Virus record (IMG/VR): IMGVR_UViG_2737471830_000002
Reading direction: 5' to 3' (one strand)
Source: a virus
Lineage: Duplodnaviria; Heunggongvirae; Uroviricota; Caudoviricetes
DNA length: 33,074 bases
The notes below the pieces were generated by a model. That model had not been told where the DNA came from. It ran no database searches and was given only the letters and a program-made list of their open reading frames with translations. Below are positions 24,432-26,896 of the stretch, one piece after another. How positions within the stretch are numbered: the first letter of the stretch is position 1; each line of letters opens with the position of its first letter. The position numbers and the translations under genes were made by a program.

Positions 24432-24710
24432 TCAGGCCTCGAAGAATTCGCCGTTCTTCGGGGCTTTTTCTTTTGTCAGCATTCTGGCTACTTTCTTAGC
24501 CAGTTCCGCCAACTCCTCGTCTTCAACACCCCATTCAAGAACAGCCAGAAGCATTCCCATTTTTGGGATGAAGCTGTCTTTCCATCGCGAAATTTGCGAT
24601 TCATTAATCCCTAACGCGTCGGCAACCTTTCGCTGACCACGTACAGCAATTCGATTCAGGATGTTGCTTGTAATTGCATTCGCTTTCTTGCGAGTACTTG
24701 TAAGTTCCAT
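24432..24710 (-). CDS. CII-type transcriptional activator (P22 C1-like)
   Basis: MELTSTRKKANAITSNILNRIAVRGQRKVADALGINESQISRWK...LAVLEWGV matches the lambda CII / P22 C1 family; ATG at 24710 with AAGGA RBS. Confidence 0.75.
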   Translation of the reverse strand: MELTSTRKKANAITSNILNRIAVRGQRKVADALGINESQISRWKDSFIPKMGMLLAVLEWGVEDEELAELAKKVARMLTKEKAPKNGEFFEA

Positions 24711-24724
24711 ATGTAAGTATTTCC

Positions 24725-24761
24725 TTAACAAATAAGAAGTTATGCGCATCAACTTATGCGC
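24725..24761 (-). terminator. tR1-like hairpin between nutR and the cII-like gene
   Basis: Minus-strand GCGCAT-AAGTTG-ATGCGC followed by a U-containing tail; position corresponds to lambda tR1. Confidence 0.35.
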
Positions 24762-24768
24762 GTTGTAT

Positions 24769-24812
24769 TCCCGCATTTCGGCGGGAATGAGGACCATGAC
24801 TGTTAAAGAGCG
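24769..24812 (-). promoter_or_regulatory. nutR (boxA CGCTCTTTAACA and boxB hairpin)
   Basis: Minus-strand CGCTCTTTAACA (24812..24801) then TCCCGCCGAAATGCGGGA (24786..24769); the same boxA/boxB pair recurs at nutL. Confidence 0.6.
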
Positions 24813-24818
24813 GTGTTA

Positions 24819-25013
24819 CTATTTGTTTTTCTTGTTGCTTGGGAAAGGACGAACTTCCTCTCCAATCACACTGCCATCAGGCTTTACCGTAACCATGATG
24901 TTACGGCCTGCCAGAATGGCCTTGCTGATAGCGCACTGGATTACACCAAAGTCACTGGCTGCTTTAGCCTGTCCATGGATTTTGGCGTAATCGGCAAGTG
25001 TCATTCGAATCAT
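24819..25013 (-). CDS. cro: Cro repressor (lambda-type fold)
   Basis: [62 protein letters not shown] aligns along its length with lambda Cro; ATG at 25013 after GGAGAG. Confidence 0.8.
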
Positions 25014-25042
25014 ATGCACTCTCCGTTATTAACCATGAACAA

Positions 25043-25112
25043 AGAATACTACAGGTATTCAAAGCAATCAATACTCAGGGTATTTTTAGTTTAAGTACCT
25101 TAGCTATTAGAA
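25043..25112. promoter_or_regulatory. OR operators with divergent pR and pRM
   Basis: AATACTACAGGTATT (25045..25059) and AATACTCAGGGTATT (25070..25084); minus-strand pR -35 TTGATT and -10 TATTCT overlap them; plus-strand TAGAAT (25107..25112) lies 7 nt before the cI ATG, implying a leaderless cI mRNA. Confidence 0.6.
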
Positions 25113-25119
25113 TTAAGCT

Positions 25120-25836
25120 ATGGAAAATAAAAAATCACTGACGACAGAACAGCTCGAAGACGCTAAGCGGCTTAAGGCTTTGTATGAGTCAAAAAAGAAA
25201 GAATTGGGAATAACCCAATACTCAATTGCTGATGAACTGGGTATCACCCAAGGAGCGGTAGGGCATTATCTTAATGGCAGAAACGCGCTAAACGTTGAGG
25301 TTGCATCTGGTTTTGCACGATTGTTGCAAGTCTCAATTGCTGATTTTAGCCAGTCAATTGCTGCCAAGGTTGCAGAACAGGCAGAAAGCCTTAAGAGCGA
25401 TGCCAACGTAAGGTATGCAGGGGAATACAGAGCAGGAAAGAGGTATCCGGTGTTAAGCAGTATCCAGGCTGGCTCGTGGTGTGAAGCATGCGAACCATAC
25501 ACCATTAAAGACATAGATGTTTGGCTTGAGTCTGACGCGCATATTCAAGGTAATGCGTTCTGGCTTAAAGTGGAAGGTGATTCAATGACGGCACCGGTTG
25601 GGTTAAGCATTCCAGAGGGAACATTCGTTCTTTTCGATACCGGAAGGGAGGCGATCAACGGCAGCTTGGTCATAGCAAAACTTTCTGACTCTAACGAAGC
25701 AACATTCAAGAAGCTGATAATCGACGGCGGAAATAAATACCTCAAGGGACTTAATCCTGCATGGCCTCTCGTGCCAATCAATGGAAACTGCAAGATTATA
25801 GGCGTTGCAATTGAGACAAAACTAAGGCTGGTTTGA
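25120..25836 (+). CDS. cI: CI repressor (HTH N-domain plus S24 LexA-like autopeptidase C-domain)
   Basis: 238 aa; LTTEQLEDAKRLKALYESKKKELGITQ...AFWLKVEGDSMTAP...FKKLI parallels lambda CI including the cleavage-domain motifs. Confidence 0.9.
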   Translation: MENKKSLTTEQLEDAKRLKALYESKKKELGITQYSIADELGITQGAVGHYLNGRNALNVEVASGFARLLQVSIADFSQSIAAKVAEQAESLKSDANVRYAGEYRAGKRYPVLSSIQAGSWCEACEPYTIKDIDVWLESDAHIQGNAFWLKVEGDSMTAPVGLSIPEGTFVLFDTGREAINGSLVIAKLSDSNEATFKKLIIDGGNKYLKGLNPAWPLVPINGNCKIIGVAIETKLRLV

Positions 25837-25853
25837 TCACGCAAGGGGCGATT

Positions 25854-26222
25854 ATGGTTGGAACCGCTATAGCAAGCTTTTTTGGGATGTTGGCAATCTC
25901 GACAATTTACGGCTTAGCGCATGCTTTTATTGCGAAATCTCTATCAGAAAAAATAAGCCAGGCTTGGGCGCATAGATCAGCTCGTTTCATGATTCTGGTG
26001 ATCATAGCAATACAAGGGATATCTGCATTTATCCTCTATGGTTCAAGCTTATACCTGTTGTATCAAGGCGCGACATTTACGCCTTACACCAGTGATTACG
26101 GAACGCTATACGATGGTAGTGAAGACATCTCTATGGCTTGGATCGTCTTTGGTTTATCTATGGCCGTGTCTGTTGTAGCAGACATCATTAAGGTAATTCT
26201 CGTCTTAACCTTCGCTGACTAA
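25854..26222 (+). CDS. Small integral membrane protein co-transcribed with cI; candidate superinfection-exclusion/abortive-infection factor
   Basis: 122 aa from ATG at 25854 (AAGGGG RBS), 18 nt after the cI stop; three or four predicted TM segments; no similarity recognised. Confidence 0.55.
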   Translation: MVGTAIASFFGMLAISTIYGLAHAFIAKSLSEKISQAWAHRSARFMILVIIAIQGISAFILYGSSLYLLYQGATFTPYTSDYGTLYDGSEDISMAWIVFGLSMAVSVVADIIKVILVLTFAD

Positions 26223-26309
26223 CCCATAATCCCGGCAGCAATAGCTATCGGGATCCACTTCACATATCCCGCATAAAAAAACACTGAACAAGAAGACACC
26301 GAAAAAATA

Positions 26310-26396
26310 AATATCCTTTGTATTCATTTGCTTATCATTATTTCACCAAAAATAAATACCTTGGGTATTTACACAATAGAATACCTACAGTATTCT
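26310..26396 (+). promoter_or_regulatory. OL operators and pL
   Basis: AATATCCTTTGTATT (26310..26324), AATACCTTGGGTATT (26355..26369), AATACCTACAGTATT (26380..26394); -35 TTTACA (26368..26373), 17-bp spacer, -10 TATTCT (26391..26396). Confidence 0.6.
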
Positions 26397-26441
26397 TTAG
26401 CCATCAGCAGGACGCTGGAAGCCAAACGGAACAGATTGGCA

Positions 26442-26483
26442 GGCTCTTTAACATTGATGGGATTGTCCCGCCGAAATGCGGGA
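26442..26483 (+). promoter_or_regulatory. nutL (boxA and boxB)
   Basis: GGCTCTTTAACA (26442..26453) and TCCCGCCGAAATGCGGGA (26466..26483), identical boxB to nutR, upstream of N. Confidence 0.6.
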
Positions 26484-26590
26484 ACCAAAGAGTAGTTGGC
26501 TTTGGGGTGACGTGAAGTGCAGCTGCACGACGGCAACCGGAAGATAAGCACCCGGAGCGTCACCGCCAAAGTCAATCATCGGAGGTCAAC

Positions 26591-26896
26591 ATGACAGTAG
26601 TCATTACTTATCTGGCTGACGATAACGCCAGAAATCGCCGCAGAGCACGCAGACAGGCTCAACGTGAACAGGCAATGCAAGAACAGCGATTGGCACGAAA
26701 AATTGCGCTAAAGCTCTCTGGTTGCGTCAGAGCAGATAAAGCAGCATCACTCGGAAGCCTTCGCTGCAAGAAGGCAGAAGAAGTCGAGAGTAAACAGAAC
26801 CATATTTACTACCGCAAGCCACGCAGTGAAATGGGTGTGACCTGTTCAGGCCGCCAGAAGCAACGCGGAAAATCAATTCCAGCTTATTACGATTGA
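26591..26896 (+). CDS. N: N-type transcription antiterminator
   Basis: Arginine-rich motif NARNRRRARRQAQREQ at the N-terminus; C-terminus ...KPRSEMGVTCSGRQKQRGKSIP parallels lambda N; GGAGG RBS. Confidence 0.8.
   Translation: MTVVITYLADDNARNRRRARRQAQREQAMQEQRLARKIALKLSGCVRADKAASLGSLRCKKAEEVESKQNHIYYRKPRSEMGVTCSGRQKQRGKSIPAYYD

Follow-up and report, generated by a model that had tools for sequence, protein, structure and literature searches.

The locus considered here, positions 25,043 to 26,396 of the 33,074-nucleotide stretch of viral DNA that we analyzed (hereafter the window), raises the question of which specificity it carries and whether the short dyads around its cI gene are the sites of CI and Cro. 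An earlier note on this DNA described operator-like AATAC-N5-GTATT sites and a leaderless cI, and regarded the region as probably a distinct immunity group. In the present study, comparison with known phages assigned the region to the HK620 type. The features of the region are listed in Table 1.

Table 1. Features of the immunity region (positions in the window)
Feature	Position	Strand	Description
nutR	24767..24812	-	boxA and boxB hairpin CCCGCCGAAATGCGGG; identical to the HK620 nutR feature
cro	24819..25013	-	64 aa; lambda-Cro fold family; recognition helix QCAISK
pR	25043..25071	-	-35 TTGATT 25071-25066, 17-nt spacer, -10 TATTCT 25048-25043; manual reading
OR1	25044..25060		GAATACTACAGGTATTC; perfect half-sites; covers pR spacer and -10
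OR2	25069..25085		CAATACTCAGGGTATTT; perfect half-sites; overlaps pR -35, abuts pRM -35
OR3	25093..25109		AAGTACCTTAGCTATTA; one mismatch per half; overlaps pRM -10 by 2 nt
pRM -10 TAGAAT	25108..25113	+	6 nt (TAAGCT) separate it from the cI ATG at 25120
cI	25120..25836	+	238 aa; HTH N-terminal domain and S24 autocleavage domain
hkaS-like gene	25854..26222	+	small membrane protein; in the place of rex in lambda; hkaS in HK620/HK630
Candidate distal third left operator	26309..26325		AAATATCCTTTGTATTC; one mismatch; 45 bp from OL2; ambiguous
Equivalent of HK620 GenBank OL3	26332..26348		TTATCATTATTTCACCA; unsupported as an operator of the AATAC-N5-GTATT motif
OL2	26354..26370		AAATACCTTGGGTATTT; perfect half-sites; overlaps pL -35
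pL	26368..26396	+	-35 TTTACA 26368-26373, 17-nt spacer, -10 TATTCT 26391-26396
OL1	26379..26395		GAATACCTACAGTATTC; perfect half-sites; covers pL spacer and -10
nutL	26442..26483	+	identical to the HK620 nutL feature
N antiterminator	26591..26896	+	first gene of the pL operon

Genes, operators and immunity type

The cI and cro genes diverge and are 106 bp apart, an arrangement typical of the lambdoid CI/Cro immunity switch. The Cro protein belongs to the Pfam family Cro (PF09048, E-value 3.6e-26), matches lambda Cro in the PDB, and is identical to lambda Cro at 38 of 64 residues (59%). CI matches the lambda repressor structure 3bdn with an E-value of 2.9e-52, as well as Pfam HTH_3 and Peptidase_S24, and 47 of the 92 residues of its N-terminal domain (51%) are those of lambda CI. 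The motif QAG at residues 116-118 aligns with the lambda cleavage site A111-G112, and the serine of GDSM and the lysine of FKKL are conserved; thus, CI appears to have the determinants of self-cleavage. The hkaS-like protein gave no significant match in Pfam. The arginine-rich N terminus of N is that of HK620 N, whereas the sequence diverges after about residue 56.

The exact motif occurs four times in the 33-kb window (at 25045, 25070, 26355 and 26380), against a mean of 0.01 in shuffled windows, none of 100 of which reached four. These sites form two pairs with a spacing of 25 bp, one (OR1/OR2) in the cro-cI gap and the other (OL2/OL1) upstream of N. With up to one mismatch there are five sites (0.71 expected), the fifth being at 26310 (AATATCCTTTGTATT). 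Allowing two mismatches adds OR3 at 25094 (AGTACCTTAGCTATT), although the 20 matches found at this threshold, where 11.85 are expected, are mostly background. The actual unit of the operator is a 17-bp dyad such as that of OR1, of the form nAATAC-N5-GTATTn; an inverted-repeat finder with a seed of 6 did not report the 5+5 operator dyads themselves. The sites described in the earlier note are thus real. Their position was given there as flanking cI and cro, which holds for cI but not for cro: the flanked pair is cI and hkaS, with OR on the side toward cro and OL on the downstream side.

The overlap of the sites with the -35 and -10 elements of pR and pL, also claimed earlier, was seen at OR1/OR2 and OL1/OL2. 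The promoter scan called only pL in this region (9 of 12 matches), in agreement with the pL annotation of HK620; its -35 shares 3 bp with OL2 and its -10 shares 5 bp with OL1. The relation of pR to OR2 and OR1 is the same as that of pL to OL2 and OL1, and the pR feature of HK620 maps onto positions 25036-25071 of the window, coinciding with pR as read here. The scan called neither pR nor pRM (each with 8 of 12 matches to the sigma-70 consensus), so these were assigned by reading the sequence, together with conservation and the HK620 annotation. A weak candidate for the pRM -35, TTTAGT, is found at 25085-25090. Thus, an OR of three similar dyads overlaps pR and pRM, and the OL sites lie at pL upstream of N.

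Between positions 24700 and 26600, the window is 98.9-99.1% identical in nucleotide sequence to HK620, mEpX2, HK630 and HK140. OR1, OR2, OR3 and OL2 are base for base those annotated in the HK620 record AF335538, from whose GenBank features the HK620 operator assignments were taken; Cro is identical at 64 of 64 residues, CI differs by one residue outside the helix-turn-helix (A66T), and the layout of pR, pL, nutL and nutR is the same. The record annotates OR1-3, OL1-3, pR and pL, but not pRM. Apart from N, the differences are the outer flanking base of OL1 (G at 26379, A in HK620), the backbone, a P22-like mosaic that is not that of HK620 and has its nearest relatives in HZ41 and IME10, and the third left operator, which we tentatively read at 26309-26325 instead of at the equivalent of the GenBank OL3. 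Since Cro, the DNA-binding residues of CI and, but for the flanking base of OL1, the operators are the same, the immunity region is, as judged from its sequence, of the HK620 type, which is already known and whose operators have been annotated since 2001. The HK620 immunity region is reportedly the work of Clark, Inwood, Cloutier and Dhillon (2001, J Mol Biol 311:657, AF335538).

The same region is carried by mEpX2, HK630, HK140, HF4s, HZ41, phi296/phi367 and some Stx2c phages. At least 16 phage records contain it, as do 146 (about 2.7%) of the 5426 complete E. coli genomes. The suggestion of a distinct group is right in that the operators are unlike those of lambda, 434 and P22. That difference is what speaks for a previously unrecognised group; with a region 98.9% identical to that of HK620, an identical Cro, a CI one residue apart and operators already present in AF335538 and in so many phage records and genomes, such a group is hardly worth entertaining. 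In our literature search, we found no experimental work on the binding of HK620 CI or Cro or on mEpX2 immunity, and no paper that we found gave binding, footprint or transcription-start results for CI or Cro of the window.

The region is an ordinary one, the lysis/lysogeny control of a temperate E. coli phage with real and well-conserved repressor sites, and the main value of the analysis is a correct annotation, with little beyond it. The HK620 immunity module has been exchanged among P22-like, HK97-like, lambda-like and Stx-type phages. With the operator nAATAC-N5-GTATTn known, homoimmunity and superinfection exclusion between prophages become predictable, and the repressor/operator pair, lambda-like yet orthogonal, could be of use in synthetic circuits.

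Conservation of the sites and the proposed switch

The earlier note had held that its reading would fail if the half-sites were not conserved in relatives; about 30 diverged lineages, with CI N-terminal domains 55-70% identical, keep them. Among 33 such lineages, which are phylogenetically non-independent, half-sites are found at -65 to -69, -41 to -44 and -18 to -20 from the cI ATG, the exception being L017, which is without a recognisable OR2. Twenty-two of the lineages stem from genomes of Lelliottia, Siccibacter, Enterobacter, Tatumella, Lonsdalea, Serratia, Pantoea, Providencia, Proteus, Yersinia, Pectobacterium, Scandinavium, Kluyvera and Microbulbifer. The information content of OR1 is 2.0 bits at every AATAC/GTATT position except one (1.8 bits) and 0.3-1.2 bits in the centre, where the five base pairs vary; OR3 is imperfect in all 33 lineages listed. 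All of these lineages keep Q-G-A-V/I-G/A-H-Y in the CI helix (QGAVGHYLNGR in the window), and Cro of the lambda fold, wherever it was found, keeps Q-x-A-I-S-K/Q. By comparison, among 55 loci without a homologous CI N-terminal domain, an exact site was present in one, and at OR in none.

When the search was started from the motif, 80 of 120 IMG/VR loci with paired motifs encoded a CI helix of the QGAVGHYLNGR type within 3.5 kb. The other 40 had no such helix within this distance; in many of them the motif sits near the end of the stretch. About a dozen of the 40 were inspected, and these adjoin unrelated regulators and have constrained centres. Within the HK620 type itself, about 60 near-identical copies were compared, the heterogeneous stretch after 26486 being left out. 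Polymorphic positions amounted to 1 of 40 in the strong half-sites, 8 of 20 in the centres and 51 of 309 in other non-coding DNA (Fisher p = 0.0004 and p = 0.017).

The conservation, the depletion of polymorphism and the invariant helices support the view that these sites behave as CI/Cro operators, and the locus is very probably a lambda-type switch of CI and Cro with the immunity type of HK620. It might instead be supposed that the dyads are kept for a role in the promoters or in the structure of the AT-rich intergenic DNA and not for the binding of CI and Cro. Indeed, GTATTC overlaps the -10 TATTCT of both pR and pL, so part of the half-site conservation could be promoter-derived, and the right half of OR3 overlaps the pRM -10. 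However, half-sites outside the promoters (that of OR2 at 25080-25084 and the outer half of OL2) are equally invariant, the same 5+5 dyad recurs at six places, and its central 5 bp are free to vary. Furthermore, the motif tracks the CI recognition helix and not the promoter or the C-terminal domain, and the published residue-to-base rules of Cro fit (PMC6649833). Together these points leave the promoter-feature explanation very improbable.

In the proposed switch, CI dimers through the QGAVGHYLNGR helix and Cro dimers through the QCAISK helix would recognise the 17-bp dyads. O1 of each high-affinity pair (OR1+OR2 and OL1+OL2) would cover the spacer and -10, and O2 the -35; since the pairs cover pR and pL, bound CI would shut off transcription of cro and N. 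From OR2, centred at -43 from the cI start, CI would activate the weak pRM, whereas the degenerate OR3, at -19 and overlapping the pRM -10, suggests negative autoregulation at high CI and repression of cI by Cro. CI would be inactivated by RecA-stimulated autocleavage, as the Ala-Gly site and the Ser/Lys dyad are kept. What the analysis shows is the sites, their statistics and conservation, their co-variation with the recognition helices and the identity with HK620, whereas binding by CI and Cro, activation from OR2, the leaderless start and SOS induction are inferred.

The pRM transcript would be a leaderless cI mRNA, as in lambda, whose cI has been cited as leaderless (PMC4488713). The earlier note had placed a TAGAAT -10 seven nucleotides before the cI ATG, and the A of the ATG is in fact the seventh base after the hexamer; TAGAAT-TAAGCT-ATG is in the same register as TAGATT-TAACGT-ATG of lambda. 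In 30 of 30 diverged lineages, a TAnnAT hexamer stands 5-7 nt before the cI ATG, though the intervening bases differ. No Shine-Dalgarno-like tetramer occurs in the 20 nt before the cI ATG of the window, whereas cro has a canonical GGAG at 25024-25021. Such tetramers precede cI in five of the 30 lineages, where they lie inside OR3 or the -10 hexamer; those of the two Proteus loci among them (L015 and L016), AGGA at a distance of 7 nt from the ATG, could be used by a transcript with a leader. The ATG is the true start, because the N terminus of CI aligns residue by residue with the arm of lambda CI. From the lambda register, the conserved -10 placed for a start at the A of AUG and the lack of a Shine-Dalgarno sequence, it is a sound prediction that the cI mRNA is leaderless, with transcription starting at or next to that A. 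Our literature search found nothing specific on leaderless cI in lambdoid phages.

One could also imagine a start farther upstream, or that TAGAAT is not the -10, so that the cI mRNA has a leader. In favour of this, TTTAGT makes a poor -35, pRM was not called by the scan, and transcripts from pRE on the cII side carry a leader and must also translate cI. These points are set against the register shared with lambda pRM, for which a leaderless start is established, the constant placement of TAnnAT and the difference between cI and cro in the Shine-Dalgarno sequence, and we regard a leadered cI mRNA from this promoter as unlikely.

The third left operator

The OL3 annotated in HK620 fits the motif poorly: by our own count, 3 of 10 half-site positions of its equivalent in the window agree, and 4 of its 17 positions are polymorphic among near-identical copies. 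The fifth site of the motif search, centred 45 bp from OL2, is possibly a better candidate, though an ambiguous one. Sister lineages carry a third left site 21 bp from OL2 instead. The third left operator of HK620-type phages may be the distal -45 site, situated on the junction element CAAAAAATAAAT, and not the GenBank OL3.

The left half of the distal site belongs to this element, which lambda and other immunity types have as well. The site could be no CI operator but only the by-product of a junction or 'tIMM' element, CAAAAAATAAATAYCYTT, that is conserved in many lambdoid phages between OL and the cI operon. The left operators of the HK620 immunity type would then number only two, or some other site would be the third. 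Several observations are in line with this explanation: the string that contains the left half AATAT recurs in lambda, upstream of OL3, and at 10 of the 55 loci with a non-homologous CI N-terminal domain, relatives with the -21 site keep AAAAATAAATTCCCTT without the right half-site, the 45-bp spacing of centres is unlike the 20 bp of lambda, and the HK620 record marks the stretch as a terminator. However, no stable hairpin was predicted for the RNA here (-1.7 kcal/mol, z +1.1), which argues against 'tIMM' being an intrinsic terminator. A minus-strand open reading frame (26327-26205, 40 aa) was also considered as the cause of the conservation and rejected, as it spans only 8 codons in L027.

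Against this explanation stands the right half of the site. Three diverged lineages (the group of the window, L008 and L027, the latter two also carrying the -45 site) have it as a perfect GTATT and five more have it in part, whereas neither other immunity types nor the group with the -21 site have it at this place. Since the right half at -45 is missing where the -21 site is present, the lineages carry either one or the other. Among 60 haplotypes, the half-sites are without polymorphism, and one polymorphic position lies in the centre. Weighing these points, we give the junction by-product nearly an even chance.

The pairing of AATAC-N5-GTATT with the QGAVGHYLNGR helix, which is shared by prophages in over a dozen genera of Enterobacterales and in Microbulbifer, and by four phage genera in E. 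coli, may represent a single specificity class. If so, repressors only 40-70% identical in the DNA-binding domain may cross-repress each other's prophages. The joint reading, in which the distal site is the third left operator of the HK620 type and the pairing is one specificity class, is a tentative one that we hold at somewhat below even.

Comparison with lambda and other operator classes

The operators of the window, as the earlier note stated, differ from those of lambda. Both phages have 17-bp dyads with an odd central base pair and divergent cI and cro genes; the centres of OR3, OR2 and OR1 are at -19, -43 and -68 from the cI ATG here and at -19, -42 and -66 in lambda, and OR3 overlaps the pRM -10 by 2 nt, followed by 6 nt and the ATG. 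The half-site bases A2, A5 and C6 are kept, as are the residues that contact them, Gln44, Asn55 and Lys4 of CI and Gln27, Ala29 and Lys32 of Cro, and also Asn52 of CI. In contrast, the half-site is nAATAC and not TATCAC, with changes at positions 1, 3 and 4, and the proteins differ by Ser45Gly, Gly46Ala and Ala49His in CI and by Tyr26Ile, Ser28Cys and Asn31Ser in Cro; the changes at positions 3 and 4 coincide with those of CI residues 45 and 49 and Cro residues 28 and 31. Furthermore, adjacent OR sites are 25 and 24 bp apart (24 and 23 bp in lambda), a third left site lies 45 bp away, if there is one (20 bp in lambda), and the hkaS-like gene stands where lambda has rexA and rexB. The operators of 434 and P22 differ from those of the window more than those of lambda do.

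The data set behind the 'evolutionary code' of Cro is said to be that of Hall, Lefevre and Cordes (2005) and Hall et al. (2011). The code associates Gln-H1 with A2, Ala-H3 with A5 and Lys-H6 with C6 (PMC6649833). For a Cro of the QCAISK type it predicts A2, A5 and C6, all of which are found in nAATAC; thus, Cro of the window and its half-site obey all three rules, and the comparative set is a natural case obeying the published recognition rules.

The AATAC-N5-GTATT motif is not unique to repressors of the QGAVGHYLNGR type. Other lambdoid operator classes, such as that of epsilon34, for which the consensus WTACRAWWTGTAT has been proposed (PMC2629481), have the core ATAC-N5-GTAT in common with the HK620 type, so some of them satisfy the pattern as well. 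However, the repressors beside these operators are unrelated in the N-terminal domain or recognition helix, and the operator centres are constrained, for example AATACAAATCGTATT and TATACATTTTGTATT, whereas the centre of the HK620-type operator varies freely.

Operator sites and immunity type

The exact pattern AATAC-N5-GTATT occurs four times in the 33-kb window (25045, 25070, 26355 and 26380), against a mean of 0.01 in dinucleotide shuffles. These perfect sites form two pairs with a centre spacing of 25 bp, and the complete operator unit spans 17 bp with dyad symmetry, as in GAATACTACAGGTATTC. At up to one mismatch there were five sites against 0.71 expected, the sole addition being that at 26310; at up to two mismatches there were 20 against 11.85, mostly background, and OR3 (25094) was among the additions. 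Operator-like sites near cI that overlap promoters, as described in the earlier note, were thus confirmed at both pL and pR. They had been placed around cI and cro; they do flank cI, but not cro, and the genes flanked are cI and hkaS.

Features of the immunity region, in window positions
Feature	Position	Strand	Remarks
cro	24819-25013	-	64 aa
pR	-35 25071-25066; -10 25048-25043	-	TTGATT, 17 nt, TATTCT; related to OR2/OR1 as pL to OL2/OL1
OR1	25044-25060		base-identical to the HK620 feature mapped onto the window
OR2	25069-25085		base-identical, likewise
OR3	25093-25109		base-identical, likewise
pRM -10	25108-25113		TAGAAT, then 6 nt, then cI ATG
cI	25120-25836	+	238 aa; divergent pair with cro
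hkaS-like gene	25854-26222		small membrane protein; after cI
tIMM of HK620	26305-26335
Candidate fifth site	26309-26325		AAATATCCTTTGTATTC; 1 mismatch
OL3 of HK620	26332-26348		TTATCATTATTTCACCA
OL2	26354-26370		base-identical, likewise
pL	26368-26396		TTTACA, 17 nt, TATTCT (promoter scan); -35 overlaps OL2 by 3 bp, -10 overlaps OL1 by 5 bp
OL1	26379-26395		one flanking base differs from HK620
N-like gene	26591-26896		after the small membrane-protein gene

Positions 24700-26600 share 98.9-99.1% identity with the corresponding stretch of HK620, mEpX2, HK630, HK140, HF4s, HZ41 and phi296/phi367, in each case the immunity region; for vB_EcoP-611R6 and two Stx2c phages the identity is 98.6%, across 96-97% of the length. 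The HK620 record (AF335538) annotates OR1-3, OL1-3, pR, pL, pRE, tIMM, nutL and nutR, and leaves pRM without annotation. Cro has no differences from HK620 Cro, and CI has one residue changed, outside the helix-turn-helix. Because the region, operators, Cro and CI match annotated HK620, the distinct immunity group proposed from the sequence is real but already known: this is the already described HK620 immunity region. New here are only two refinements of the annotation (pRM with a predicted leaderless cI, and the placement of OL3) and the breadth of the specificity class.

Four phage genera carry the module (Lederbergvirus, Shamshuipovirus, Lambdavirus and Traversvirus), as do 146 of 5426 complete E. 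coli genomes; besides P22-like phages, its hosts include HK97-like, lambda-like and Stx-type ones. Outside this region the window has a mosaic backbone of P22-like (Lederbergvirus-type) character, nearest to HZ41 and IME10, with 96-97% identity to both over about 60% of the length of 1-24000. The N protein, 11 aa longer than that of HK620, is the same as HK620 N (locus L001, 3391-3663) for about 56 residues, including the arginine-rich motif, and then diverges completely, which indicates a recombination junction inside N.

The third left operator

The annotated OL3 of HK620 matches the consensus at 3 of 10 half-site positions (manual count), and 4 of its 17 positions are polymorphic. The dyad covered by tIMM, likely the fifth site of the earlier note, is a much better operator-like match, and its half-sites show no polymorphism among near-identical copies. 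A site at the same position, -45 relative to OL2, exists in two diverged loci (L008, one mismatch; L027, none), and other lineages have their third left site at -21 instead. RNA of the tIMM stretch gave no hairpin folding (-1.7 kcal/mol, z +1.1). The left half of the dyad lies inside a shared element, CAAAAAATAAAT, which lambda also has ahead of its OL3 and which recurs at 10 of the 55 loci with a non-homologous CI N-terminal domain, and therefore half of the match comes free. Of the five sites first proposed, four are exact, and for the fifth the chances of its being a functional operator appear about even.

Several further observations concern this interval. The string CAAAAAATAAAT(A/T)YCYTT, at 26300-26330 between the last cI-operon gene and OL, where the HK620 record puts tIMM, is conserved in lambda (upstream of OL3), the HK620 type and several unrelated immunity types (loci L025, L048, L052, L055, L057 and L072). 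It may mark the junction of two modules (a "boundary sequence") or act as a terminator of non-canonical form. Just 3' of the hkaS stop codon, an inverted repeat with 11-bp arms (ATCCCGGCAGC / GCTATCGGGAT; 26229-26254) that no T-run follows may mark where the cI-hkaS transcript really ends or is processed. A 65-aa "hypothetical protein" in the HK630 and phi296 records (26318-26515, plus strand) overlies OL2, OL1, pL and nutL; it is almost certainly not a real gene.

Half-sites in copies and relatives

Among about 60 near-identical copies, 1 of 40 strong half-site positions segregates, against 8 of 20 central positions (Fisher test, p = 0.0004) and 51 of 309 other non-coding positions (p = 0.017), the copies being phylogenetically non-independent. 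This is the pattern that would be expected of protein-contacted half-sites with a non-contacted centre.

From species-representative genomes and IMG/VR, 160 loci encoding CI relatives were retrieved, and those with a homologous CI N-terminal domain comprised 33 distinct diverged lineages (domain identity about 55-70%; Microbulbifer about 40%). Twenty-two came from genomes (Lelliottia, Siccibacter, Enterobacter, Tatumella, Lonsdalea, Serratia, Pantoea, Providencia, Proteus, Yersinia, Pectobacterium, Scandinavium, Kluyvera and Microbulbifer), and the others were IMG/VR contigs. As to the conservation in relatives raised in the earlier note, the half-sites were kept in the 33 lineages, with dyad centres at -65 to -69, -41 to -44 and -18 to -20 from the cI ATG, except that one locus (L017) has no recognisable OR2. 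A left pair 24-25 bp apart was also present wherever the left operator region fell within the retrieved sequence. In OR1, the information content is 2.0 bits at all AATAC/GTATT positions except one (1.8), against 0.3-1.2 in the central five. None of the 33 lineages has a perfect OR3 (1-3 mismatches). In most of them the defect is confined to position 6 of the half nearer cro, and the half overlapping the pRM -10 is intact, as would suit an autoregulatory site that is deliberately weak.

All relatives with the homologous domain retain QGAVGHYLNGR as the CI recognition helix (rare variants G/A, V/I and L/M), and the lambda-fold Cro proteins of these relatives, with identity down to 22/64, retain Q-x-A-I-S-K/Q, where x is C, T or M. 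Among the 55 loci without the homologous domain, most of which share the C-terminal domain, an exact site occurs at a single locus, and at OR there are no exact sites. In lambda Cro, the second recognition-helix position (H2, Ser28) contacts base pairs 4-5. Here H2 is Cys, Thr or Met despite identical half-sites, and therefore may add little to specificity in this operator class. In three Microbulbifer prophages (marine gammaproteobacterial; about 40% domain identity; L061, L063 and L064), the CI helix ITQGAVGHYLNGR and operators of the form AATACC-N-GGTATT are kept, and the product of the gene on the cro side is another kind of HTH protein (LGVTQG..) instead of a lambda-fold Cro.

In the reverse direction, the paired motif alone recovered 120 IMG/VR loci, and in 80 of them the CI helix is encoded no more than 3.5 kb away. 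For many of the remaining 40, the motif is near the end of the available stretch, so that an adjoining cI could be missing from it; about a dozen of the 40 were inspected, and these represent other operator classes, with constrained centres, beside unrelated regulators. A second operator class combines the same ATAC...GTAT core with constrained centres TATACATTTTGTATT and AATACAAATCGTATT (L020-L024, L031, L062, L066, L171, L200, L248, L278 and others); its neighbours are repressors whose N-terminal domain is unrelated, and small conserved ORFs (MQTTQ..CPVYLHPAAA..). The class is similar to the operator consensus proposed for epsilon34, WTACRAWWTGTAT (PMC2629481). A search by pattern only would mix the two immunity classes.

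Probable leaderless cI and comparison with lambda

Lambda cI is the textbook leaderless case and is cited as such (PMC4488713). The window shares its cI-proximal register (TATCCCTTGCGGTGA-TAGATT-TAACGT-ATG in lambda, AAGTACCTTAGCTAT-TAGAAT-TAAGCT-ATG here), and the -10 reported 7 nt before the cI ATG was found as described. In 30 of 30 diverged lineages the ATG is preceded, at a distance of 5-7 nt, by a TAnnAT hexamer, with differing spacer bases. No Shine-Dalgarno-like tetramer occurs in the 20 nt before the window cI ATG; five of the 30 lineages do have such tetramers, located within OR3 or the -10 hexamer, and those of the two Proteus loci among them (L015/L016; AGGA 7 nt before the ATG) could serve a leadered transcript. 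A canonical GGAG precedes cro. We infer, as the earlier note did, a leaderless cI mRNA, which the lambda-like register, the hexamer and the lack of a Shine-Dalgarno sequence support well.

Lambda operator coordinates and sequences were taken directly from the lambda record. CI aligns with lambda repressor over its whole length (E 2.9e-52; 47/92 identical in the N-terminal domain), and Cro, which also matches Pfam Cro, is identical to lambda Cro at 38/64 positions. Operators are 17 bp in both, and OR3, OR2 and OR1 are centred at -19, -42 and -66 in lambda and -19, -43 and -68 here. Relative to lambda TATCAC, the half-site nAATAC is changed at positions 1, 3 and 4, and A2, A5 and C6 are common. 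In the 1LMB and 6CRO complexes the conserved bases are contacted by CI Gln44, Asn55 and Lys4 and by Cro Gln27 and Lys32, all retained here; the residues that read positions 3-4 are changed (CI Ser45Gly, Ala49His; Cro Ser28Cys, Asn31Ser). The QAG cleavage site of CI is conserved, as is its Ser/Lys dyad. Cro and the half-site obey all three published Cro rules, in which Gln-H1 pairs with A2, Ala-H3 with A5 and Lys-H6 with C6 (PMC6649833). The feature is real and its first interpretation essentially right; judged from these sequence comparisons, the mechanism would be the lambda paradigm with an altered half-site.
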